Positions 1,410 to 36,044 of a stretch of 38,858 bases of DNA are shown piece by piece. A program made the position numbers and the translations under genes. Within the stretch, counting starts at the first letter, position 1. Each line of letters begins with the position of its first letter. Below the pieces are notes generated by a model. The model was not told the origin of the DNA, made no database searches, and worked only from the letters and a program-made list of their open reading frames with translations. This stretch comes from a virus (Duplodnaviria > Caudoviricetes). The stretch spans positions 1 through 38,858 of IMG/VR virus record IMGVR_UViG_3300036770_002623, one strand, 5' to 3'.

Positions 1410-3712
1410 TGCCGCTGTCCAAGGTTGTATTTAAGCCGGGTGTCAACCGAGAGACCACAAACTACGCCAACGAAGGTGGGTTCTTCTCGGTAGACAAGGT
1501 CCGGTTCCGTGGCGGATACGCCCAGAAGATTGGCGGCTGGGTTAATCAGAGTTCCAACGGAGGATCATTTGAAGGCGTACCCCGTTCACTGTGGAACTGG
1601 GTGGCTATTGCTGGCCAGAACCTGTTGGGCGTTGGAACCAACCAGAAATACTATGTAGAACTGGGTGGCACTTACAACGACATTACCCCTCTCGCCAGCA
1701 CGGTCAGCCTGACCCTGAATCCGTTCACGACCACCTCCGGTAGCCGAAGCATTGTCGTTAGATCAACGTCACACGGAACCACCATTGGTTCCTATGTCAC
1801 GTTCACTGGAGCCAGTTCTTTTGTCGTTGGTGCATCAACTCTTTTGATCAATGGCCAATACGAAGTTATTTCGGTTCCCGGCTCAGACACGTTTACTATC
1901 TTCGGCCCATCTATTGCCGCTTCGACTGTAACCGGTGGCGGTTCCCACGTCATAGCCGCTTATCAGATTGATGCAGGTCCAGCCGTTTACACGACGCAGG
2001 TTGGTTGGGGCGGCCCTCCGTGGGGTTTTGGAGGTTGGGGATCATCTGATCCACAAGGTGTTCCATTGCGCCTTTGGTCCCAGTTCAACTTTGGAGATGA
2101 CCTAATATTCGCTGAACGGCGTGGGTCAATCTATTACTGGACCATTGACACTACGACATGGGCTAGAGCCACGACTTTGGCTGACAAAGCCGACAGCATT
2201 ACCAAGTTTTCGACAGTGGCCACAGCAGCCTCTGGCGCAACCACTATTGTCGTAGCCGATGCGACTGGCATTAACACCGGATCGGTAGTATCTGGTAGCG
2301 GTATTGCTGCTGGAACCTATGTCACTACGTCATGGACCGGTGGTCAGTCTGTCACTATCTCTGCAGCCACTACGTCTTCATTGACGCTGACTGCTGTTGA
2401 TTTCAGTTACGCCGGTCGGCATGTTCCACCGCAAACCAACTTAGTGATCGGTTCTCCGCTGAACGATTTCACCATCGCTCTTGGAGCCAATCCCTACAGC
2501 CCGGTGGATTTCACGACTGACTTTGATCCGCTGTTGGTTCGTTGGTCAGACCAAGAGAATCCATGGGAATGGGTTCCCGAAGTCACCAACCAATCTGGTG
2601 AGCGTCGCATATCCAGTGGATCTGAAATCGTTGCAGGTATCTCAACTCGTCAGGAAATCTTGGTGCTGACTGATACTGCTGTGTTCTCCATGCAGTATCT
2701 GGGTCCGCCGTTTGTCTGGGGATTCAACCTCCTTGACCAAGACATTTCCATTGCGTCCCAGAACGCGATTGCATCCATCAACAACACCGTTTACTGGATG
2801 GGAACCGATAAGTTCTTCGTCTACAACGGTCGCGTTGACACACTGCCTTGCACCATTCGACAGCACATCTTTAGCAACCTGAACCAAGATCAGATTGCTC
2901 AGGTGACCTGCGGCAATAACGAAGCGTTCAGTGAGGTGTGGTGGTTCTATCCATCCACCAATAGTTACGTCAATGACAGTTTCGCGGTGTTCAACTACCT
3001 TGAAGGTGTCTGGACTTATGGCAGTTTAAACCGCTCTGCATTTGCTCCTCAGACCATCCGCAAGTACGCGATGATGGCCTTTGGTATCCAGACCAGTTAT
3101 CTGGATACCGCTATCGATTCCTCTGTCACAACTATTTCTCTCGTCAATGCATCGTCCTATCCCAATTCTGGAATCGTTCAGATCGATTCAGAGAAAATCA
3201 GTTATACCGGCATTAGTGGTAATACTCTTACCGGTTGTGTTCGCGGTGTTGGCGGTACAACTGCTGCTTCGCACACCATCGATACTGAAGTCGCGTTTGT
3301 CGCGCCGAATCAGGTGATGTTCCACGAAGTCGGCTGGGACGATGTTTCGACGGGAACCCCTGAGCCAATTGAATGCTTCATTGAATCTTCAGACTTTGAT
3401 ATCGGGGACGGCGAATCATTCCAGTTTGTATCCAGAATTATTCCGGACGTGAAGTTTCTGGGATCTACCACTAATACTCCGGCAGTGACGTTGTCTCTGT
3501 ATCCCAGAAACTATCCGGGTTCTGCCTACGGCACACCGGATTCCGATGCAGTGACAGCCACGGTTGTGCTTCCGATTGAGCAATACACCGAACAGGTCTA
3601 CACCCGTGTTCGTGCCAGACAGATTGCATTCCGCATTGCATCGACTGCACTGGGTGTAGCGTGGCAGATGGGTGCGATGAGATTCGACATTCGCCCGGAT
3701 GGTAAACGGTAA
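1409..3712 (+). CDS. Tail / DNA-stabilisation (tail tubular B, P22 gp10-like) structural protein
   Basis: N-terminal FKPGVNRE..Y, VRWSDQEN, VYWMG, EVWWFYPS, C-terminal R.DIRPDGKR typical of podovirus nozzle proteins; inserted S/T-rich beta domains. Confidence 0.75.
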   Translation: MPLSKVVFKPGVNRETTNYANEGGFFSVDKVRFRGGYAQKIGGWVNQSSNGGSFEGVPRSLWNWVAIAGQNLLGVGTNQKYYVELGGTYNDITPLASTVSLTLNPFTTTSGSRSIVVRSTSHGTTIGSYVTFTGASSFVVGASTLLINGQYEVISVPGSDTFTIFGPSIAASTVTGGGSHVIAAYQIDAGPAVYTTQVGWGGPPWGFGGWGSSDPQGVPLRLWSQFNFGDDLIFAERRGSIYYWTIDTTTWARATTLADKADSITKFSTVATAASGATTIVVADATGINTGSVVSGSGIAAGTYVTTSWTGGQSVTISAATTSSLTLTAVDFSYAGRHVPPQTNLVIGSPLNDFTIALGANPYSPVDFTTDFDPLLVRWSDQENPWEWVPEVTNQSGERRISSGSEIVAGISTRQEILVLTDTAVFSMQYLGPPFVWGFNLLDQDISIASQNAIASINNTVYWMGTDKFFVYNGRVDTLPCTIRQHIFSNLNQDQIAQVTCGNNEAFSEVWWFYPSTNSYVNDSFAVFNYLEGVWTYGSLNRSAFAPQTIRKYAMMAFGIQTSYLDTAIDSSVTTISLVNASSYPNSGIVQIDSEKISYTGISGNTLTGCVRGVGGTTAASHTIDTEVAFVAPNQVMFHEVGWDDVSTGTPEPIECFIESSDFDIGDGESFQFVSRIIPDVKFLGSTTNTPAVTLSLYPRNYPGSAYGTPDSDAVTATVVLPIEQYTEQVYTRVRARQIAFRIASTALGVAWQMGAMRFDIRPDGKR

Positions 3713-19450: not shown

Positions 19451-19748
19451 ATCCAACCACGCCAGTAACTACATGGGGCGGGTCAAGGAACTAGACTGCG
19501 CTCTCTGTACGATCTTGGGCCAGCCTCAGACTTCCATCACTGAAGCCCATCACATCCGCACTGGGCATGGGCTTGGTGATAGAGCCAGTGATTTCCTGAC
19601 AGTCGCGCTATGCGTTGAGTGTCATCGCGGGACGCATGGGTTCCACGGGACCAAGGCTCTGATGAAGATCGCCAAACTCAGTGAGATGGATTTGTTGGCC
19701 GAAACAATTAGAATGCTGGATCTTAAAAGTTTAAACTTAGAGAAATAA
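19440..19748 (+). CDS. HNH-fold protein (Ref / DUF968-like)
   Basis: C.LC...EAHHIR.G.G...RASDF.TVALC.ECHRG..G.HG. Confidence 0.7.
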   Translation: MATKSNHASNYMGRVKELDCALCTILGQPQTSITEAHHIRTGHGLGDRASDFLTVALCVECHRGTHGFHGTKALMKIAKLSEMDLLAETIRMLDLKSLNLEK

Positions 19749-19787
19749 ATCTAGGTTATATTTGGCCAAACGATGAGGGCTTGCATC

Positions 19788-20018
19788 GTGGCAAAGCGCA
19801 AAGATAAGTACATTCCTATTCAGATTGAAGAGGGGAAATGGTACAGAGTTAGGGGGTATACCCACTCTGAGTGTTGCGACTGTGCCTTGGTTCACCTTGA
19901 AGAATATCGTTTGGTTGATGGACATCTGGAATGGAGGGCTGTCAGGGATGACAAGACCACCAACGCCAGACGTAAACAACTAGGCATAAAGGTGGATCGT
20001 GCCAAAAAAGATCACTGA
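19788..20018 (+). CDS. Hypothetical protein (CCDC.LVH motif)
   Basis: GTG start with GAGG RBS; overlaps the phosphoesterase start. Confidence 0.6.
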   Translation: MAKRKDKYIPIQIEEGKWYRVRGYTHSECCDCALVHLEEYRLVDGHLEWRAVRDDKTTNARRKQLGIKVDRAKKDH

Positions 20019-20997
20019 CGAAGACTTCATTGCATGTTGGGAACGGTATAACAACCCTAGAAAAGTCTCAGAAATTCTTGGATTAAGCCTGCGCCAAACC
20101 TCCTCGCGAAGGCGAAGTCTAGAGTCCCGATATGGGATTCAATTGAAATCAAACACGGTTATATTCAACCCCAACAATAAGAACCTGATCTCAGCGGTAA
20201 GGGCAGATGAACTTGCCCGTGAGCGCGTTACCCGATACGAAGATGAAATGCATGGAACCCTGTTAGATGGGGTTCTGATGGTGGGTTCTGATGCCCATTA
20301 CTGGCCGGGTATTGTCAGCCCTGCACATGAAGCCTTCTGCAGATTAGCGAAAGAACTTAAACCCAAAATGGTTGTCCTCAATGGGGACATCATGGATGGT
20401 GCCCGGATTAGTCGCCATCCCAGAGTCCTTTGGCAGAAACTGCCGACCGTCAAGGATGAAGTCCATGCCATGCAGGATCGGTGCGCTGAGATCGAACGAG
20501 CAGCGCCCAGAGCCGCGCTAGTTCGGACTATCGGGAACCATGATGCAAGGTTTGAGAATTACCTTTGCGGACATGCACCCGAGTTCGAAGAGATGACGGG
20601 AACATCTCTGCTGCATTACCTGCCGAGATGGAGAGCAGGGTGGGCATTGCATTTAAACGCTAGCACACATGGCTGGACGGTCATCAGACATCGTCATGTC
20701 AGCGGCGGTATCCATTCAGCCTATGCATCCACTGTCAGGGCGGGTGTCCATTACGTTCATGGCCATCTCCACAAACTGCAATGCGTCTCGTTTGGAGATT
20801 ACCGAGGCCGCCGCTATGGGATAGACTGTGGAACCCTCGCTGACCCCAAGGGACCACAGTTCGCTTATACCGAAGGTGGTCCACTCAACTGGTCTAGCGG
20901 GTTCTACGTTCTGACATTCAAAGGTGGCGTGTTGTTGCCACCTGAACCCTGTTTGATTGATAGAGGTAAGGCATGGTTTCGCGGAGAGGAGATCTAA
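19999..20997 (+). CDS. Calcineurin-like metallophosphoesterase with N-terminal HTH-like segment
   Basis: SDAH, LNGDIMD, GNHD, GHLH motifs. Confidence 0.88.
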   Translation: MPKKITDEDFIACWERYNNPRKVSEILGLSLRQTSSRRRSLESRYGIQLKSNTVIFNPNNKNLISAVRADELARERVTRYEDEMHGTLLDGVLMVGSDAHYWPGIVSPAHEAFCRLAKELKPKMVVLNGDIMDGARISRHPRVLWQKLPTVKDEVHAMQDRCAEIERAAPRAALVRTIGNHDARFENYLCGHAPEFEEMTGTSLLHYLPRWRAGWALHLNASTHGWTVIRHRHVSGGIHSAYASTVRAGVHYVHGHLHKLQCVSFGDYRGRRYGIDCGTLADPKGPQFAYTEGGPLNWSSGFYVLTFKGGVLLPPEPCLIDRGKAWFRGEEI

Positions 20998-21182
20998 ATA
21001 ACCTACGTCCAGAACCTTGCGTGTCTTGTGTTTGGTGTTGCCCTTGGAATGGAAAGGGCTGGGGCTGTGCCCACAAATCAGTTAAGGGATTGCTTCGCGG
21101 AACGGTTCCGTGTGGAGGCCAGCACTACAAAAAAGCGGGGGCCTTTTCGTGGCCCCCGAAGGATGGTCTTGCAGAAGCATAA
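20973..21182 (+). CDS. Possible small Cys-rich protein
   Basis: CVSCVWCC...GC...C. The 3' end runs antisense over the terminator/sRNA candidate. Confidence 0.35.
   Translation: MVSRRGDLNNLRPEPCVSCVWCCPWNGKGWGCAHKSVKGLLRGTVPCGGQHYKKAGAFSWPPKDGLAEA
21129..21158 (-). terminator. Rho-independent terminator
   Basis: CGGGGGCC-ACGAAAA-GGCCCCCG followed by CUUUUUU on the minus strand, at a convergent gene boundary. Confidence 0.85.
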
Positions 21183-21218
21183 CCCGACTGCGCCGCGAGA
21201 ACAGGAGCGGCACCGACC
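21129..21218 (-). ncRNA. Putative trans-acting anti-RBS small RNA
   Basis: TTGTGT-N17-TAGTAT upstream (21252-21224); 7-bp stem with loop UCCUGUUCUC; second hairpin; terminator. Confidence 0.5.
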
Positions 21219-21226
21219 CGTGCATA

Positions 21227-21553
21227 CTACTCAGGTTGATCTGACCACACAACATCGTGGTCGCTACCGAATGACATGATCAGATCTAGCATGTCTGCCA
21301 TCTCCTGCTTGGACATGCCAGAGGTAGGCTCACCAAGGTAGACCATCCCGCCTTCGATACCGGGAACCATGCGCTGCTTACGGATGGCAGCAGTGAAGAT
21401 CCACTTCCAATCCTTCTTCGACAATCTCTGCCCGTGCCATTCAACCTGATCAGAGATGTCACCGAGCAGCGCCCACATCATGGAGTTCTGACTGACACTG
21501 CGACGGTTCTTCTTGATGACCTGTCCCAGCAATCTCTCTATGTTCTCTTCCAT
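21227..21553 (-). CDS. ninB: NinB / Orf family recombination protein
   Basis: RS.SQN..MWA.L.DIS.QV.WHG..L...DWK.IF.A...PG..GG.V.LG..TS.MSK. Start refined to ATG 21553. Confidence 0.85.
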   Translation of the reverse strand: MEENIERLLGQVIKKNRRSVSQNSMMWALLGDISDQVEWHGQRLSKKDWKWIFTAAIRKQRMVPGIEGGMVYLGEPTSGMSKQEMADMLDLIMSFGSDHDVVWSDQPE

Positions 21554-21555
21554 GT

Positions 21556-22107
21556 TTAAACTTCCTCTGAACTGAAGTAGCCGGACTGCCTCTTCAGGAA
21601 CTTCGGCCATGTAGGTTCAGCAAAAGACTTGTCCTTGATCAGGACATGGTTCGTGGGCTGTGCCGTGAACCTTCCGATGTTCTTCAGGGCAATGAAGTAG
21701 AACTCTTTGGATTGCTCTGGCTCTGCGCTAAACCCATCGCCAATCGGAGCAGCGGTAAATAGATACTCTCCGTCATGCTCTGATCGATTCTGGAGGCGTA
21801 CACGGGCCTGCATCCCTGAAAGGAAGGGATACTCCAGTGTCGTGAACTGCCAGCCATAAGCGTCCCATGTCGCTGCATCAGAGGGTTCCCAAGGTACGCA
21901 TTGAGGAGACAATGACAACTGATGCAAGCCAAGGTTCCGATATACCGCGCCACATTCCAGCATCACATGACATCCCCATGCTCGACCCGGCCATGCGGTT
22001 AAACCAAACCAGACACCCCGCATCCAGCCATGTTCCCCACAAGCATTGGGTTCCACCCAAACATATTGGTGTTTAGGTAAAGCACCGGACCCGGTGTAGA
22101 GCGTCAT
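21556..22107 (-). CDS. Hypothetical phage protein
   Basis: 183-aa ORF packed into the minus-strand operon; motif-like H.MLE.GA.YR.L, WD.YG, QPTN. Confidence 0.7.
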   Translation of the reverse strand: MTLYTGSGALPKHQYVWVEPNACGEHGWMRGVWFGLTAWPGRAWGCHVMLECGAVYRNLGLHQLSLSPQCVPWEPSDAATWDAYGWQFTTLEYPFLSGMQARVRLQNRSEHDGEYLFTAAPIGDGFSAEPEQSKEFYFIALKNIGRFTAQPTNHVLIKDKSFAEPTWPKFLKRQSGYFSSEEV

Positions 22108-22335
22108 TTATTCCCCCCTCGCACGGATGGCGGCGGCGCATCCCACAAGTGTCGGGATATGCGTCAATGTCGTTGATTCTTTCGGTATCGGACCGTCCTC
22201 ACACACCTTCGCACACGCCTCCCGCTCGGCTGCGGAAACGAGGGCGGCGAATCGTTCAAGTGCATGAGGCCAGAGGTCTGCGAATGTTCCAAACCCTGCC
22301 TCTCGCGCCAGTCGGATGATGTCGTCGCGGGTCAT
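22108..22335 (-). CDS. Hypothetical protein (MTRDDII.LAREAG...EREACAK.CE...AAAIRARG type)
   Basis: ATGA overlap with the upstream paralog; common phage small-ORF pattern. Confidence 0.75.
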   Translation of the reverse strand: MTRDDIIRLAREAGFGTFADLWPHALERFAALVSAAEREACAKVCEDGPIPKESTTLTHIPTLVGCAAAIRARGE

Positions 22336-22595
22336 AAAAAACCTCTCGCACGCTCCATAGCCTGCCACTCCAATGCCTTCAACAAATCTTCAACCGTATC
22401 ACCGTGACCGGTGGCATAGTCATGTTTAATCATCCACTTGGCTACCTTATCCCGCTCGGCTGTGGTAGCAAGGCGGTGGAAATGAATGTCTCGTATTGCA
22501 AGAAATCCCGTAGTCAAATAATCCCCATTAAATAAGTCTTTCTTGGCAAGTTCATACGCTTCATCTGCCATGCGTAGGATATCTTCGCGGGTCAT
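22332..22595 (-). CDS. Hypothetical protein (MTREDI.RMA...GHGDTVEDLL)
   Basis: ATGA-coupled; N-terminus paralogous to 22108-22335. Confidence 0.7.
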   Translation of the reverse strand: MTREDILRMADEAYELAKKDLFNGDYLTTGFLAIRDIHFHRLATTAERDKVAKWMIKHDYATGHGDTVEDLLKALEWQAMERARGFL

Positions 22596-22744
22596 TTTTC
22601 TACCCCAAGGGCTTTACATAGATCGTAGTACGCAAGCCCGAACCACAAAAAAATTGCCATGCCAACCATGTAAGGCAGAATCCATATCGGTGATGTCGCA
22701 ATAATCAAAACGGCTGCGACTTTTTTCCAGAAATTTAGTTTCAT
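22592..22744 (-). CDS. Small membrane protein, 50 aa, absent from the ORF track
   Basis: MKLNFWKKVAAVLIIATSPIWILPYMVGMAIFLWFGLAYYDLCKALGVEK; ATGA overlaps at both ends fill the gap exactly. Confidence 0.7.
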   Translation of the reverse strand: MKLNFWKKVAAVLIIATSPIWILPYMVGMAIFLWFGLAYYDLCKALGVEK

Positions 22745-22953
22745 ACCTTAGCCCCGTAGTATCTGCCAACCAGTTTAAATGCATCGATGTGCTGCTTTAA
22801 TTCTGCTAGGTCTTTGTCTTTGTCGAAGTTAAAGATGGCAATGTCTTTTCCAGCCTTGCGATCTTTGTAATCTTTCTGAAGCGACTTCAGGGTGCGCTGT
22901 AGTTCCGCTGCTGCAATCTCTTCTAGTAAGTCAGAACTAATTTCAATCTTCAT
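22741..22953 (-). CDS. Hypothetical protein
   Basis: GAGG RBS, ATGA-coupled. Confidence 0.7.
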   Translation of the reverse strand: MKIEISSDLLEEIAAAELQRTLKSLQKDYKDRKAGKDIAIFNFDKDKDLAELKQHIDAFKLVGRYYGAKV

Positions 22954-23147
22954 TTTGATTTCCTCTTGTATTCGCTGTTCTCTACTTTCTTGAGCCAGCC
23001 CTTGCCGGTCTCAACAAACCCCGCCATTGCCAGCGCCTCTAATGATCGGCAACCACCAAAGCCGTAGATGTGCGCTCTGAAAGATTCGGGTGTTGCAAAC
23101 TTACGTTTGCAGTCGGTGCATCGTCTTTCCTTTTTTACCACGCTCAC
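22950..23147 (-). CDS. Small C2H2-like zinc-finger protein
   Basis: CTDCKRKF....F.AH......C. Confidence 0.55.
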   Translation of the reverse strand: MSVVKKERRCTDCKRKFATPESFRAHIYGFGGCRSLEALAMAGFVETGKGWLKKVENSEYKRKSK

Positions 23148-26558: not shown

Positions 26559-26582
26559 ACTGTTCTCCTGTTTAGTATTGTC

Positions 26583-26610
26583 ATTGTACATGATTGGTAT
26601 TGATAAGCAA
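26583..26610 (-). promoter_or_regulatory. Putative sigma70 promoter upstream of sak
   Basis: TTGCTT-N16-TACAAT. Confidence 0.45.
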
Positions 26611-26614
26611 GCAA

Positions 26615-27493
26615 TCAATACCCTGCTTCGATGGCTTCGCGTTCACGCTGGAACTGTGAACACCATGCGCTGACGCGACACCAGTTGGCATTACAGCGGG
26701 TTGCTTCACCCCTCCTGAACTCCAACTCCATCCCATCCGCAACGGCTGCACGGGCTTCTGCTTCGTTGTCAAACAACTTGACCGCCCTCTTCTGACCCTT
26801 GCGCTTGAGTGCCCACTTGGATTCCTTGATCCAACGCTCCTGCTCAGAGCAGTCAGGCAGTTCCGCGCCAGTCAGCCGGTCGAACTCCGCCTTCTGGTGC
26901 AGTACCACTCGCTCGTTTAAATACCTATCGGCATCCATCTCGCTCCACATCGGGATGTCTACCTCGACGATGGGGGCACGGGGATAGTCAGGCTTCTCTT
27001 CGGCATCACGCGCTCTCCAGTCACGGAGAATGGCAATGACCTTCAAGGCTTTCACCTTGGAACCCTTGGCCCTACGGACGAGTGCGGCATAGCAATTCAA
27101 CTGCCGCTCCCATTCGATCTTGCCCATGATCACTGACCACACCGAGGTGGTCTTGTAATCCATGATCGTGACACCGTCGTCTTCGATCTTCTGGACATCG
27201 ATAGCACCACTGACAACCCAGCCTTCGATCTCAGTGAAGATGCGCTCTTCGCTGATGTGCTTGTCATCGGCAGTCTCTTCGAACATCTTGTGAGCAGCAG
27301 TTCCCAACACAGCCCACATCTTTTCCGAAACATCTTCGGTCAGTTCATCCCAGTGTTCTCGCCGCAGGATGCGGACACGGGGTGAGTCGATGAGTTGTGT
27401 GATCGAACGATTGCTCTCGCCCTTGGTGTACTCACTGCGCGTCAATGCTTTGACGACAGGGTCTGGCAGTCCGAACTTGTTGGTGAGTTTCAT
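26615..27493 (-). CDS. PD-(D/E)XK exonuclease (Cas4/RecB-like)
   Basis: GTAAH, SGAID, DYKTT, QLN.YA, C-terminal C..WC.V..WC.Q. Confidence 0.85.
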   Translation of the reverse strand: MKLTNKFGLPDPVVKALTRSEYTKGESNRSITQLIDSPRVRILRREHWDELTEDVSEKMWAVLGTAAHKMFEETADDKHISEERIFTEIEGWVVSGAIDVQKIEDDGVTIMDYKTTSVWSVIMGKIEWERQLNCYAALVRRAKGSKVKALKVIAILRDWRARDAEEKPDYPRAPIVEVDIPMWSEMDADRYLNERVVLHQKAEFDRLTGAELPDCSEQERWIKESKWALKRKGQKRAVKLFDNEAEARAAVADGMELEFRRGEATRCNANWCRVSAWCSQFQREREAIEAGY

Positions 27494-27729
27494 TTGCGCC
27501 AGATCCTCACGCCGCCTTTGTCTTTGCTACTACTGAACTTGTAATCCTTGTGCTTCGATGAGAATCTTGACAGCCTGACTCGCACCGAATGCAAGACGCG
27601 ATCAATCTCCTCGTCACTGCAATCGATCAGGATACTGTCACCGGGCCGCAATTCTTTGAGTGGTAGTGGCCCCACTGTAACCCTGTTCGCGATGCGCGAA
27701 GGCAGCGGAACATTTTTTTCAATCTTCAT
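27490..27729 (-). CDS. Small DNA-binding-like protein (MKIEKNVPLP...GDS...GVRIWR family)
   Basis: Characteristic N- and C-terminal motifs; GAGGAG RBS. Confidence 0.7.
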   Translation of the reverse strand: MKIEKNVPLPSRIANRVTVGPLPLKELRPGDSILIDCSDEEIDRVLHSVRVRLSRFSSKHKDYKFSSSKDKGGVRIWRK

Positions 27730-27789: not shown

Positions 27790-28137
27790 GTATCTTTTGT
27801 AGTGTTTGGTGAGCCAGCAAGCAAGGCGAATAGTCGTAAACTTGTGCGTTTAAATGGTCGCCCTGCTTTTATCAAATCCCAGAAGGCTCGTGACTATCTC
27901 GCTGCGTTCCAACTGCAATGCAAAAAGGTTTTCCCGTTGATGACAGGCGATGTCTCCGTTGAGATCACGATCTGGTACGCAAGTCGTAGACCAGACCTTG
28001 ACGAGAGTGTAATTTTAGATGCCATGCAGGGATTGATCTACGAGAACGATAGACAGGTGAAAGAAAAGCATGTGTTCCACCGTCTCGACAAAGACAATCC
28101 CCGCGCACAGATCACCGTTCGACCCTTGACCCCATAG
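27778..28137 (+). CDS. rusA: RusA-family Holliday junction resolvase
   Basis: GEP.SK.N, RRPDLD...ILDAMQG..Y.NDRQV, D..NPR..I.V. Confidence 0.88.
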   Translation: MSSEVSFVVFGEPASKANSRKLVRLNGRPAFIKSQKARDYLAAFQLQCKKVFPLMTGDVSVEITIWYASRRPDLDESVILDAMQGLIYENDRQVKEKHVFHRLDKDNPRAQITVRPLTP

Positions 28138-28230
28138 ATATATATAAATATATATCTAGATATATCTTTATAGATATATCTATAACTACCTGTAAAGGAA
28201 TCTTATATATAAATATCTTTTTTTATAATA
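28135..28230. other. AT-rich palindromic segment, putative replication origin
   Basis: Three AGATATAT-based palindromes directly upstream of the primase-helicase. Confidence 0.55.
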
Positions 28231-28246
28231 ACTATTGGAGAACAGT

Positions 28247-29944
28247 ATGAATCTAGAACAGATTGTGTTATCGCAATCAAACAACAGTCGAATCCGTTGT
28301 CCTGTCTGTGCAGAGGACAGGAAGAAGTCGCACATCAAAACGATGGGTGTTACGGTCGAGAATGACCGTGTCGTTTACCAATGCTTTCACTGTGGAACTT
28401 CGGGTGCAGTGAGAAGGGATCGCTTCATGTATCAAGTCAAGGAACTCAGCAAGAACGTCGCGCCTATTGATCCACCATCGGAGGTCAAGCCTGAGATCGT
28501 GGAGAACTTCTTGCGGAGCCGGGGCATTGATCCTCAGTTGGTTCAGGACTACCCATTGGTGGGTGGGAACAAGTACTTTGCAGAAGGTGGCAAGCAAGAT
28601 GCCATCGGGTTCATCTACGGTGACACCCGCGCACCTCAGGCGATCAAGTGGAGATCGGTCAGCGACAAGGCGTTCACGCAGCAGGGTTCTGCTCGTTCGT
28701 TCTTTGGTTTAAACCAATTACCAAAAGACCTGACGGATCTGGTCATCTGCGAAGGCGAGATGGATGTCCTTGCACTGGCCGCAGCGGGTATCCATGCCAT
28801 CGGTTGTCCGAACGGGGCACCGCAGAAGATCAGTGATCGCAAGGTAGACCCCAAGGAAGATGGCAAGTACTCGTTTGTGTGGGAGTCACGGGAACTGATT
28901 GAGTCCGTGCAACGGGTGGTGTTCATCCCAGACCAAGACGAACCCGGTCAGGCCCTCGTTGAGGAACTGGCAAGACGTATCGGACGCGCCAAGTGTTGGA
29001 CGGTCACGCTCCCCTGCAAGGATGCCAACGAGACCCTCCAAAAACATGGCGCTGAGGCCATACGAGAGGCTTTTCTAGCCGCTAAACCCCTCCCACTAGA
29101 GGGTGTGTACTCCCCCGCTGATTTTGAGACTCAGATCCTGTCTCTGTACGACGATGGGGTGGTGAAGGGGGCAAGTACAGGCTTGGGAACCCTTGATCCT
29201 TTGTACACGGTGCTGCCGGGACAGTTATCGGTGTTCACTGGACTGCCGGGTAGTGGTAAGTCCGAGTTGATCGATCACATCTGCGTCAACATTGCTATGC
29301 AAAAGGGATGGCGGTTTGCGATTGCGAGTTTTGAGAACCCACCTCACATGCACATCGCCAAACTGGCTGAGAAGGTGGTCGGCAAACCGTTCTTTGGTGA
29401 GAACCGAATGGATGCAGACGAGCGCGACTATGCATTGGCATTCTTGAACGAACACTTTGTGTTCCTGCAGTCCCATGACGGCGCTCCGAGTACGGTGCAG
29501 TCCATCATCGACCGCACCAAGCAAGCGGTCATGCGTATGGGTGTGCGTGGCCTGATCATTGACCCGTACAACTACCTCGACATGAGCGGATCAGACTCCG
29601 AGCATCAAGCCATCAGCAAAATGCTCACGGACATCGTGCTGTTCTGCAAATCGCATGAACTGCATGCATGGTTCGTTGCTCACCCGGCCAAGCAACTGCC
29701 CGACAGCGGCCCTCCGAAGGGGCAGCACATCTCAGGCAGTGCGGCATGGTTTGCGAAGGCAGACATGGGTGTGACGGTTCACCGGGCAGGGAACCAGACC
29801 GAGGTGCATGTGTGGAAGTGCCGGTTTAAATGGGTCGGCAAGGTTGGCATGGTCGAATTGAATTACGACATCCCAACGGGGCGCTACTCAGATAAGGCTC
29901 ACTTCGCTGCGCTCACCAACGAGTGGGATGACATCGACCTATGA
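28247..29944 (+). CDS. Primase-helicase (Zn finger + TOPRIM + DnaB/T7 gp4/Twinkle-like SF4 helicase)
   Basis: CPVC...CFHC, ICEGEMD, D.DEPG, KDANE, GLPGSGKS, IIDPYN, VAHP.K, ISGS, K.RF..VG. Confidence 0.93.
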   Translation: MNLEQIVLSQSNNSRIRCPVCAEDRKKSHIKTMGVTVENDRVVYQCFHCGTSGAVRRDRFMYQVKELSKNVAPIDPPSEVKPEIVENFLRSRGIDPQLVQDYPLVGGNKYFAEGGKQDAIGFIYGDTRAPQAIKWRSVSDKAFTQQGSARSFFGLNQLPKDLTDLVICEGEMDVLALAAAGIHAIGCPNGAPQKISDRKVDPKEDGKYSFVWESRELIESVQRVVFIPDQDEPGQALVEELARRIGRAKCWTVTLPCKDANETLQKHGAEAIREAFLAAKPLPLEGVYSPADFETQILSLYDDGVVKGASTGLGTLDPLYTVLPGQLSVFTGLPGSGKSELIDHICVNIAMQKGWRFAIASFENPPHMHIAKLAEKVVGKPFFGENRMDADERDYALAFLNEHFVFLQSHDGAPSTVQSIIDRTKQAVMRMGVRGLIIDPYNYLDMSGSDSEHQAISKMLTDIVLFCKSHELHAWFVAHPAKQLPDSGPPKGQHISGSAAWFAKADMGVTVHRAGNQTEVHVWKCRFKWVGKVGMVELNYDIPTGRYSDKAHFAALTNEWDDIDL

Positions 29945-31624: not shown

Positions 31625-31905
31625 GCTCTGCTCTCCTGCTTTGCTCGTTGTAGTTCAAACCATTTGCGTGTGATGTCATCGGTCAGTTGTCGAGTCCGCA
31701 TGTTGTACTGCTTCCGCAACAATTCAAACTTGTTGACCTCGCGTTCTAGTTCCACCTTCAGCATGCGGTACTCAGCATCCAGTTGCTCAACGTAGGGGTC
31801 AGTCAATCGTTCCATGTTGCGATTCTCCATGCGACGATCAGCATCAGGGGAATGAGTGCCATGCGAGGCAAGTAAAACAAGAAGTCTTCCCATGTCATCA
31901 CTCAT
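31621..31905 (-). CDS. Hypothetical coiled-coil protein
   Basis: GGAGG RBS; overlaps its neighbours. Confidence 0.6.
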   Translation of the reverse strand: MSDDMGRLLVLLASHGTHSPDADRRMENRNMERLTDPYVEQLDAEYRMLKVELEREVNKFELLRKQYNMRTRQLTDDITRKWFELQRAKQESRA

Positions 31906-32782: not shown

Positions 32783-32806
32783 GTTGTTCTCCTGCATTTA
32801 AAAGGA

Positions 32807-35351: not shown

Positions 35352-35384
35352 GATTCTGTTCTCCATGTTGTCGGTATGTTGTGA

Positions 35385-35414
35385 AGTATAAACGCTGCGT
35401 TGTGTCGCAGTCAA
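35385..35414 (-). promoter_or_regulatory. sigma70 promoter (early)
   Basis: TTGACT-N18-TATACT. Confidence 0.7.
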
Positions 35415-35752: not shown

Positions 35753-35764
35753 GACTGTTCTCCT

Positions 35765-36010
35765 GTTGTGTGTGACTCAGTGCAGCGTCCTCAGCGAGGG
35801 CGCTCTACTGAATCAAGGCTTCCCGGTAGATTGGGCATCGTCACACTGTCGGGCGACTCGCGAAATGTCGGTCATCGTCTTCAACCCTACGGCTACACCG
35901 ATGCTTTAGGCCGGATTCCCCTTGCGGGAACCGTCGGGCTGCTTGCGCTCATCCGACACCAGAACCTTTGTTTTTCACCTAGCGGCTTGGCCTGTCTGGG
36001 GGGCCAGTGC
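35765..36010 (-). ncRNA. Structured 5' leader / candidate ncRNA
   Basis: No plausible CDS between promoter and first gene; several hairpins, two GCAA tetraloops. Confidence 0.45.
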
Positions 36011-36015
36011 TGCGC

Positions 36016-36044
36016 ATTCTCCGGATTACATGACCACCTGTCAA
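36016..36044 (-). promoter_or_regulatory. Strong sigma70 promoter (first early promoter)
   Basis: TTGACA-N17-GAGAAT with an upstream A-tract. Confidence 0.75.

Follow-up and report, generated by a model that had tools for sequence, protein, structure and literature searches.

A predicted anti-RBS small RNA behind ninB whose loop changes together with the ribosome-binding sites of sak and other phage early genes

The 38,858-nt virus record analyzed here, which we refer to in its entirety as the window, is predicted to encode a trans-acting small RNA of ~90 nt on its minus strand, immediately behind ninB (positions 21129..21218), with an open loop complementary to ribosome-binding sites (RBSs) of the same genome. 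We consider it fairly probable that this RNA pairs with, and represses, sak and other early genes. Comparison of relatives points to a real, conserved and previously unlisted candidate family of phage small RNAs (sRNAs), whose own-genome targets appear to be supported comparatively to an unusual degree. Because the loop and the RBSs have changed together across relatives, the RNA likely lowers early-gene translation.

Virion genes occupy the plus strand of the record, which is 65% complete; the early/replication module, at ∼21.2–36.2 kb, encodes ninB, Sak, a PD-(D/E)XK exonuclease, RusA, a primase-helicase, an AAA ATPase and an SprT-like protein. The RNA locus lies at the junction between the minus-strand operon of this module and the end of the late operon. 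No close cultured relative was found: a nucleotide search of cultured phages gave two short matches at chance level, the nearest cultured terminases (Pelagibacter phages HTVC023P/027P and two others) are 53–55% identical, and the nearest cultured helicase is 35% identical. A distant relative at the end of a 466-kb Pseudomonas MAG contig (G035:C21 1-58000; L325), with 64% identity in terminase and 39% in sak, is possibly integrated; neither ninB nor the element was found in it. Two further features of the early module are recorded here as side observations. The very AT-rich gap at 28137-28230, between rusA and the primase-helicase gene, carries repeated ATATAT/AGATAT and is a possible replication origin. 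The 79-aa protein encoded at 27490-27729 (minus strand), divergent from rusA and conserved across the clade, is a candidate transcription regulator for which there is only a sub-0.9 Atlas lead, to DUF7303.

The predicted transcription unit begins within ninB (21227..21553, minus strand; PF05772, E = 5e-34; phrog_72), the 3′ end of which contains a −35-like hexamer, TTGTGT (21247..21252). A 17-nt spacer separates this from a −10-like hexamer, TAGTAT (21224..21229), whose TAG is the ninB stop codon, and the 5′ end of the RNA is placed from the position of the −10. The predicted seed is hairpin 1 (21190..21213), which consists of a 7-bp stem (arms GUGCCGC, 21213-21207, and GCGGCGC, 21196-21190) and a 10-nt open loop, UCCUGUUCUC (21206-21197), that is unpaired in the folding ensemble. 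Hairpin 2 (21165..21184), variable in length and sequence among relatives, is followed by an intrinsic terminator (21129..21158), made up of a hairpin at 21158-21136 and a U6 tract and present on the minus strand only. The promoter-like site, both hairpins and the terminator all lie on the minus strand where the sequence-only reading had put them. With three of six consensus matches at the −35, the promoter-like TTGTGT is absent from the sites listed by a consensus scan, and what suggests a promoter in the window is comparative. Folding alone barely chooses a strand, since the 90-nt minus-strand RNA folds at −39.6 kcal/mol (z −2.8) and the plus strand across the locus at −36.9 kcal/mol (z −2.5); the RNA is assigned to the minus strand because the U-tract and the promoter are found there.

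Relatives were gathered by NinB searches, which gave at least 40 distinct downstream sequences with NinB at least 60% identical. One of these is truncated (L090), one is without the element (L124) and 38 carry it, so that the hairpin and terminator stand behind ninB in 38 of the 39 full-length distinct relatives among the matches listed. In L124 (NinB 65% identical) the ninB frame runs on and, with no RNA element, directly adjoins a convergent gene (655 onward). The element is absent from three inspected loci with NinB at 55–57% identity. The more distant relative G017 (NinB 54%) has it in a longer form (L204 16406-16515) with two seed-like hairpins, whose C/U-rich loops are UUCCCCU and UUCUCCUG. 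A pattern scan for the element gave 30 matches; three of 13 new matches inspected, having neither ninB nor the structure, were set aside as chance. A separate sequencing run of contigs, which are probably DNA, contains relatives as short pieces only.

The promoter-like site is conserved along with the RNA. All 38 element carriers have TTG-N20-TAnnnT, a 17-nt spacing, in either of two registers relative to the ninB stop codon; in about half of the relatives the −10 box lies wholly behind the stop and is still 17 nt from the −35. The TTG, the T at position 6, the TA and the last T are invariant in 30 of 30 distinct promoters, and the three middle bases of the −10 vary. The −35 T is supplied by a synonymous T in a Val codon that is invariant in 50 of 50 ninB sequences (L124 excluded), and this is the only invariant site among the 23 four-fold columns of the last 96 ninB codons.

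The stems of hairpin 1 differ widely among relatives yet pair, with 191 of 210 positions Watson–Crick in 30 hairpins that were picked to maximize pairing. Pair changes were counted in a 15-sequence subset, because a MAFFT alignment of 35 whole RNAs misaligned shifted loops. In this subset, a single sub-clade with two misaligned rows, both sides have changed in four of eight stem pairs, and the covariation score exceeds 500 of 500 shuffles and every slid control.

An opposite-strand, convergent ORF covers the RNA in most relatives. In the window this place is taken by a small Cys/His-rich ORF (20973..21182, plus strand) that ends the convergent late operon, stops inside hairpin 2 and is antisense to the 3′ half of the RNA; similar peptides occur in L091, L096, L105 and L118. 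The opposite-strand ORF ends before the loop in the window and in L097, L098, L099, L117, L126, L127 and L129, the tail peptides differ, and two unrelated ORFs occupy that place. Other relatives have a DUF968/HNH-like ORF that spans the entire RNA on the opposite strand and often ends in AV or AA. We regard it as very improbable that the plus strand is the functional one. In that reading the 3′ end of the late transcript would present ACAGGA, likened here to a Csr motif, in a decoy loop, and so draw a repressor, Csr/Rsm-like or a phage RNA-binding protein, which has the early RBS motif as its other binding site. The folding of that strand and the ORF that covers it in most relatives fit such a role, but the promoter and U-tract would then be on the wrong strand, the specificity of a protein would need to have changed at least four times, and the stem pairs that are not Watson–Crick favor the minus strand, where eight are G-U versus four A-C, the latter all at or beside the outer end of the helix.

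The predicted targets of the minus-strand RNA are early genes. The motif GAGAACAG is found six times in the window, versus 1.75 expected: one copy is the element itself, one is inside a coding sequence (22982), and four stand just before an ATG (P = 1.6e-4 for at least four of the five non-element copies at an ATG, with a background of 0.076). As the sequence-only reading had claimed, these four directly precede the ATG codons of sak, the primase-helicase gene, the SprT-like gene and ORF 35752, and AACAGGAG precedes two of the four, sak and ORF 35752. The motifs follow the mRNA strand and so occur on both DNA strands. The sak RBS, AACAGGAGAACAG (26560..26572, minus; CDS 26558-25851; PF06378), contains both pairing registers, and ORF 35752 has the same RBS, AACAGGAGAACAG (35755..35767, minus; CDS 35752-35510). 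The GAGAACAG sites of the other two genes are at 28238..28245 (plus) for the primase-helicase (CDS 28247-29944) and at 35356..35363 (minus) for the SprT-like gene (CDS 35351-34740), which is assigned by a Pfam match below cut-off (E = 0.0012).

An accessibility-aware scan of 51 start regions in the window ranks six early genes at the top: the SprT-like gene (−12.2 kcal/mol), ORF 31624 (−10.4), ORF 35752 (−10.4), ORF 32782 (−10.0), the helicase gene (−9.9) and sak (−9.1). An internal start in terS comes seventh. Two genes are thereby added as likely further targets on this modeling, ORF 31624 with the RBS GAGAGCAG and one G-U pair (31628..31635, minus) and ORF 32782 with the 7-nt RBS GAGAACA (32785..32791, minus). 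The conserved sequence GUUGGUG behind hairpin 1 had been considered by eye as a second seed for the 5′ coding sequence of the exonuclease in some phages; it was dropped because it is stem sequence of hairpin 2 and the best sites in the energy scan are on loop 1.

To judge from 20 records, the constant core target would be sak, with the helicase, exonuclease and SprT-like genes as lineage-specific targets. A match of at least 8 nt to the loop of the same genome is present at sak in 17 of 20, at the helicase gene in nine of 18, at the exonuclease gene in seven of 18 and at the SprT-like gene in three of six. The gene behind sak has such a match in two of 20 records, and five control genes (DUF7303-like, rusA, ninB, terS and cobS-like) jointly have one in 62. 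The original list of four targets is kept at its core, sak, made lineage-specific for the primase-helicase and SprT-like genes, and extended by two ORFs. Across seven genomes (G005 and G008 dropped as near-duplicates), matches of at least 8 nt occur at 26 of 112 early versus one of 69 late starts with GGAG, and at 27 of 229 early versus one of 206 late starts overall, as counted with a simple home-made gene caller that misses ORF 35752; the Fisher p of 2e-5 for early versus late is optimistic because the genomes are related. G006 has the RNA unchanged, on 37.8 kb of sequence made up largely of late genes, and its five other matches all lack a closely following ATG. Sites with one mismatch are G-U compatible in nine of 18 early and one of five late cases, the differences being transitions, which are common anyway.

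Promoter-like sites stand upstream of three predicted targets, all on the minus strand: TTGCTT-16-TACAAT upstream of sak (26583..26610; a pattern match only), the sigma70-like TTGACT-18-TATACT upstream of the SprT-like gene (35385..35414) and TTGACA-17-GAGAAT upstream of ORF 35752 (36016..36044; a consensus match only). Sigma70-like sites are not enriched in the window, with nine versus 10.6 in shuffles. The promoter-like sites at 36044, 35414 and 26610 have ORF 35752, the SprT-like gene and sak, respectively, as their first ORFs, and blocking these three genes would damp downstream genes as well because they are first cistrons. ORF 35752 is separated from the best of the early promoter-like sites by an ORF-poor leader of ∼260 nt (35753-36016, minus), which may be structured.

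Comparison of relatives shows that the loop and the sak RBS change together. The common loop UUCUCCUGUUU is paired with the sak site (A)ACAGGAGA. In G003 the loop is UAUUCUCCUGU and the sak site ACAGGAGAAUA; the corresponding pairs are UUCUGUUCUC and GAGAACAGAA in G001, GUUGCUCCU and AGGAGCAAC in G002/G005, CUCCUGUGU and ACACAGGAG in G008/G009, and CCUCCUGUUAU and AUAACAGGAGG in G016, for which the sak site was taken from L200, 99.3% identical to G016 across 5.8 kb. At least four separate paired changes of loop and site (G001, G002, G008 and G016) fall on a tree of four proteins in which several inner nodes are weak (45–78). In G008/G009, the exonuclease and helicase sites share the ACAC variant, one of them with a G-U pair.

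The sequence-only reading had named covariation of the loop with the RBS motif in relatives as a test, and its outcome is positive: the longest perfect match between loop and sak site is 9.1 nt for cognate versus 7.5 nt for foreign pairs in 15 records. When ten hand-chosen loop types are permuted, 910 of 3,628,800 arrangements reach the observed sum of match lengths. By duplex energy, the mean is −15.1 kcal/mol for own pairs and −11.4 kcal/mol for foreign ones, and 265 of 3,628,800 permutations are as good; the loops in both comparisons were delimited by hand and the counts are phylogenetically non-independent. On the same energies, seven of ten loops bind their own site best, and five of ten sites are bound best by their own loop. 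Part of any match between loop and RBS is expected because the seed overlaps the ordinary Shine–Dalgarno core.

The fit is not uniform. Among later-found records the sak match is 9 nt in L401, 8 nt in L408, 9 nt in L422 and 7 nt in L435, and sites below 8 nt occur in three of 20 records (L118, 7 nt; L435, 7 nt; L129, 6 nt). L129 has a one-base loop change with no matching change in the site, and the loop of its sister L408 is intact. The helicase gene of L118 retains an ancestral-type site that the L118 loop no longer fits. In L435/G014 one loop base has changed, and the 8-nt fit is lost at seven starts and gained at the SprT-like gene; in L435 (G042), this gene starts near 3272 behind the RBS AACAGGAU, which fits the one-base loop variant. 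The SprT-like gene of L435 is 88% identical to that of the window, and the rest of the genome is near G012. The window loop itself matches its own sak site over 8 nt (−12.7 kcal/mol), versus 12 nt (−19.5 kcal/mol) for the ancestral loop, and it reaches −13.2 on two foreign sak sites. We interpret the window sak site, AACAGGAGAACAG, as probably holding the old and the new register together. In L094 (665-755), a contig too short to include sak, the loop region has the G002, ancestral and G000/G001 seeds in overlapping registers, a possible intermediate for shifts in specificity.

A detector fed only with the sak RBS returns just the element behind ninB in nine of 11 in-group records, missing G003 and L129, and gives one match in 14 out-group records, which have no ninB. 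We take this lone match (G041) to be an AT-rich RBS seen on its reverse strand. These comparisons bear on another account of the locus, that it is an ordinary operon terminator with neutral hairpins and matches to common strong RBSs, or is conserved on behalf of the opposite-strand ORF. RBSs of the ACAGGAG type are common and an opposite-strand ORF often reads through the element, which is what such an account would predict. It has no place for the covariation of loop and site or for the constraint on the promoter, ACAGGAG is absent from all 14 out-group sak sites examined, and the opposite-strand ORF stops before the loop in seven relatives and the window, with differing tail peptides; we find this account scarcely credible.

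The site distribution also bears on whether the RNA acts in trans. The hairpin could be the 3′ UTR of a long sak-to-ninB mRNA and pair in cis with the sak RBS at the 5′ end of that mRNA, with no free sRNA being made. That sak is the most constant target (17/20), has a promoter-like site upstream and is in an operon ending at this terminator is in keeping with such an arrangement. We nevertheless think it unlikely, since it leaves unexplained both the selection on a promoter inside ninB and the matching sites outside the sak-to-ninB unit. Of these, the primase-helicase site is on the opposite strand, and those of the SprT-like gene and ORF 35752 belong to upstream units; non-sak sites of this kind also track the loop in G008/G009 and L435.

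A generic anti-Shine–Dalgarno RNA directed mainly against host mRNAs, and causing host shut-off in the manner of the toxic small RNAs of Burkholderia, is a further reading that we hold to be quite improbable. Most of the loops contain CUCCU, and the RF02278 RNAs are likewise short double hairpins with CU-rich loops that are predicted to lie over RBSs, according to the accessible text of PMC5688073; the unpaired, CU-rich, RBS-complementary loop of that family is found here as well. Those RNAs, as that text presents them, are chromosomal and multicopy with host targets, and it describes no phage-specific covariation. The RF02278 model has no match at 19500-23000 in the window or in 12 homologous loci. 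CUCCU has been lost from the G001, L086, L091 and L096 loops, and the G001 loop, in the sole CUCCU-less record with sak on the contig, forms 11 nt of pairing with the sak site of that genome. Tracking of phage RBSs would not be expected of an RNA aimed at the host.

The reading that we prefer is therefore a trans-acting RNA directed at the phage's own early mRNAs. Host polymerase with a sigma70-type factor would transcribe it from inside the 3′ end of ninB, and read-through of the sak–ninB transcript would stop at the same terminator. Bacterial sRNAs usually repress translation by pairing over the Shine–Dalgarno sequence and spacer, and a loop helix of 8–12 nt would cover both here and block 30S binding. 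The RNA may be made by the host polymerase together with the early genes, accumulate, and then cap the amounts of Sak, helicase and other early proteins. Its likeliest purpose would be delayed negative feedback on recombination, replication and host-takeover proteins. Late mRNA is naturally antisense to the RNA in most relatives, where the two overlap through a convergent late ORF, and this convergent transcript could neutralize the RNA late in infection.

The same base pairing could instead serve immunity or quiescence, with the RNA silencing a resident genome or blocking superinfecting kin and the divergence of loops and sites defining immunity groups, as with the C4 RNAs of P1 and P7. At the molecular level this is compatible with the preferred reading. 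Several loop types are nearly orthogonal: the G002 loop scores −16.2 with the sak site of G002 and from −7.2 to −9.3 with the others, and the ancestral loop, matching over 5 nt, is evaded by the G002 site. A 4-nt difference limits C4 cross-reactivity, as far as the accessible text of PMC5320573 describes it. On the other side, the ancestral loop is retained in many lineages and cross-reacts widely. A Phage_integrase match is absent from 24 of 24 records, nine of them at least 90% complete, HTH_3 has no match in 16 in-group records, none of the 61 ORFs in the complete genome G003 is annotated as integrase or repressor, and no close sak relative was found among 80 listed bacterial-genome loci. 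An immunity role is less likely because no integrase or repressor match was found, and we treat it as a doubtful, minority possibility.

C4 is also the nearest mechanistic precedent. In the accessible text of PMC5320573 it is a short, trans-acting phage RNA with loops on its own mRNA, partly over the RBS, and, as predicted here, its specificity depends on a small number of changes that are matched between RNA and target. It differs in having three stem–loops with two target loops (a′ and b′), in being excised by RNase P and in serving lysogenic immunity, according to the same text. The RNA predicted here has a single seed hairpin, a variable hairpin 2 and a terminator, with two C/U-rich loops only in G017; it has its own promoter-like site and terminator, and its several unlinked recombination and early targets are in phages with no integrase match. 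Computationally, a loop lying on the phage's own RBS with covarying specificity is found in this family too. The C4 Rfam model gave no match at E ≤ 5 in the window (19500-23000) or at E ≤ 2 in the 12 homologous loci; Rfam as a whole gave two chance matches in the window and none in those loci.

The P4 CI RNA, in the portion of PMC4825925 available, is likewise small and phage-encoded, and uses short stretches of pairing to silence replication genes of the phage itself. That RNA is processed and terminates its own transcript at seqA/seqC, whereas the sites here are RBSs on several transcripts, 5–15 kb away, at start codons and on both strands. Other known phage sRNAs share with the predicted RNA the post-transcriptional control of phage development; as covered by the accessible part of the review PMC12197685, sar of P22 and OOP and aQ of lambda are antisense to single genes, lambda PreS targets host dnaN, and VP882 VpdS acts via Hfq on host and phage RNAs. 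No phage sRNA in that part is described with a loop whose sequence varies in step with several early RBSs of the same genome. The general features of a base-pairing sRNA are found here on conservation evidence only for the promoter and intrinsic terminator, and by prediction for an accessible, conserved seed complementary to unlinked mRNAs. In the open literature searched we found no description of this RNA. The searchable supplements of PMC10690425 contain no match to ninB, PF05772 or four motif strings, and the alignment archives of that study may list the RNA. The suggestion of a possibly undescribed system accordingly holds for the RNA family and its regulon and does not hold for the mechanism, for which C4 of P1/P7 is a precedent.

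A comparable arrangement may exist in cluster K mycobacteriophages. In the accessible text of PMC3203893, SAS is an extended RBS motif found only at non-structural genes, its role is given as unknown, and four K1 phages each have one copy in reverse orientation; it is 13 bp long and present in 11–19 copies, and the accessible parts of PMC3203893 and PMC11373665 propose no RNA partner. The reverse SAS lies between gp96 and gp97 in Anaya (JF704106; L482 33871-33883) and between gp92 and gp93 in Adephagia (JF704105; L483 32683-32695). In both, a long intergenic hairpin, GC-rich and on the plus strand, holds it in its open loop, CCUCCUAU, and the outer stem differs between the two phages with pairing retained; these are two of two phages examined, closely related, and the observation is without a shuffle control. 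The hairpin is a candidate anti-SAS RNA. SAS differs from the motif of the RNA predicted here in sequence and in the phylum of the host, and the Adephagia hairpin sits in the 92–93 gap where, in the accessible text of PMC11373665, late transcription begins. We tentatively raise the idea, which we hold at less than even confidence, of a widespread layer of phage regulation in which early genes share a private extended RBS and one complementary RNA loop shuts the class off, and which would explain SAS.

The phage sRNAs covered by the accessible part of PMC12197685 are antisense to single genes, act on host mRNAs or work via Hfq. If the preferred reading is true, co-repression of a phage's own recombination and replication regulon by one RNA would provide a protein-free means of timing or capping early expression. 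The matched loop–site pairs, together with the putative intermediates in L094 and in the window sak site, would be a rare record of shifts in sRNA specificity, and the natural series of loops and sites supplies ready-made orthogonal pairs. The anatomy shared by Anaya and Adephagia brings the question of SAS, posed as open in 2011 and again in 2024, within direct reach of tests in a cultured phage. If the broader idea is true, it would amount to an RNA-only early-to-late switch or a kin-exclusion system.
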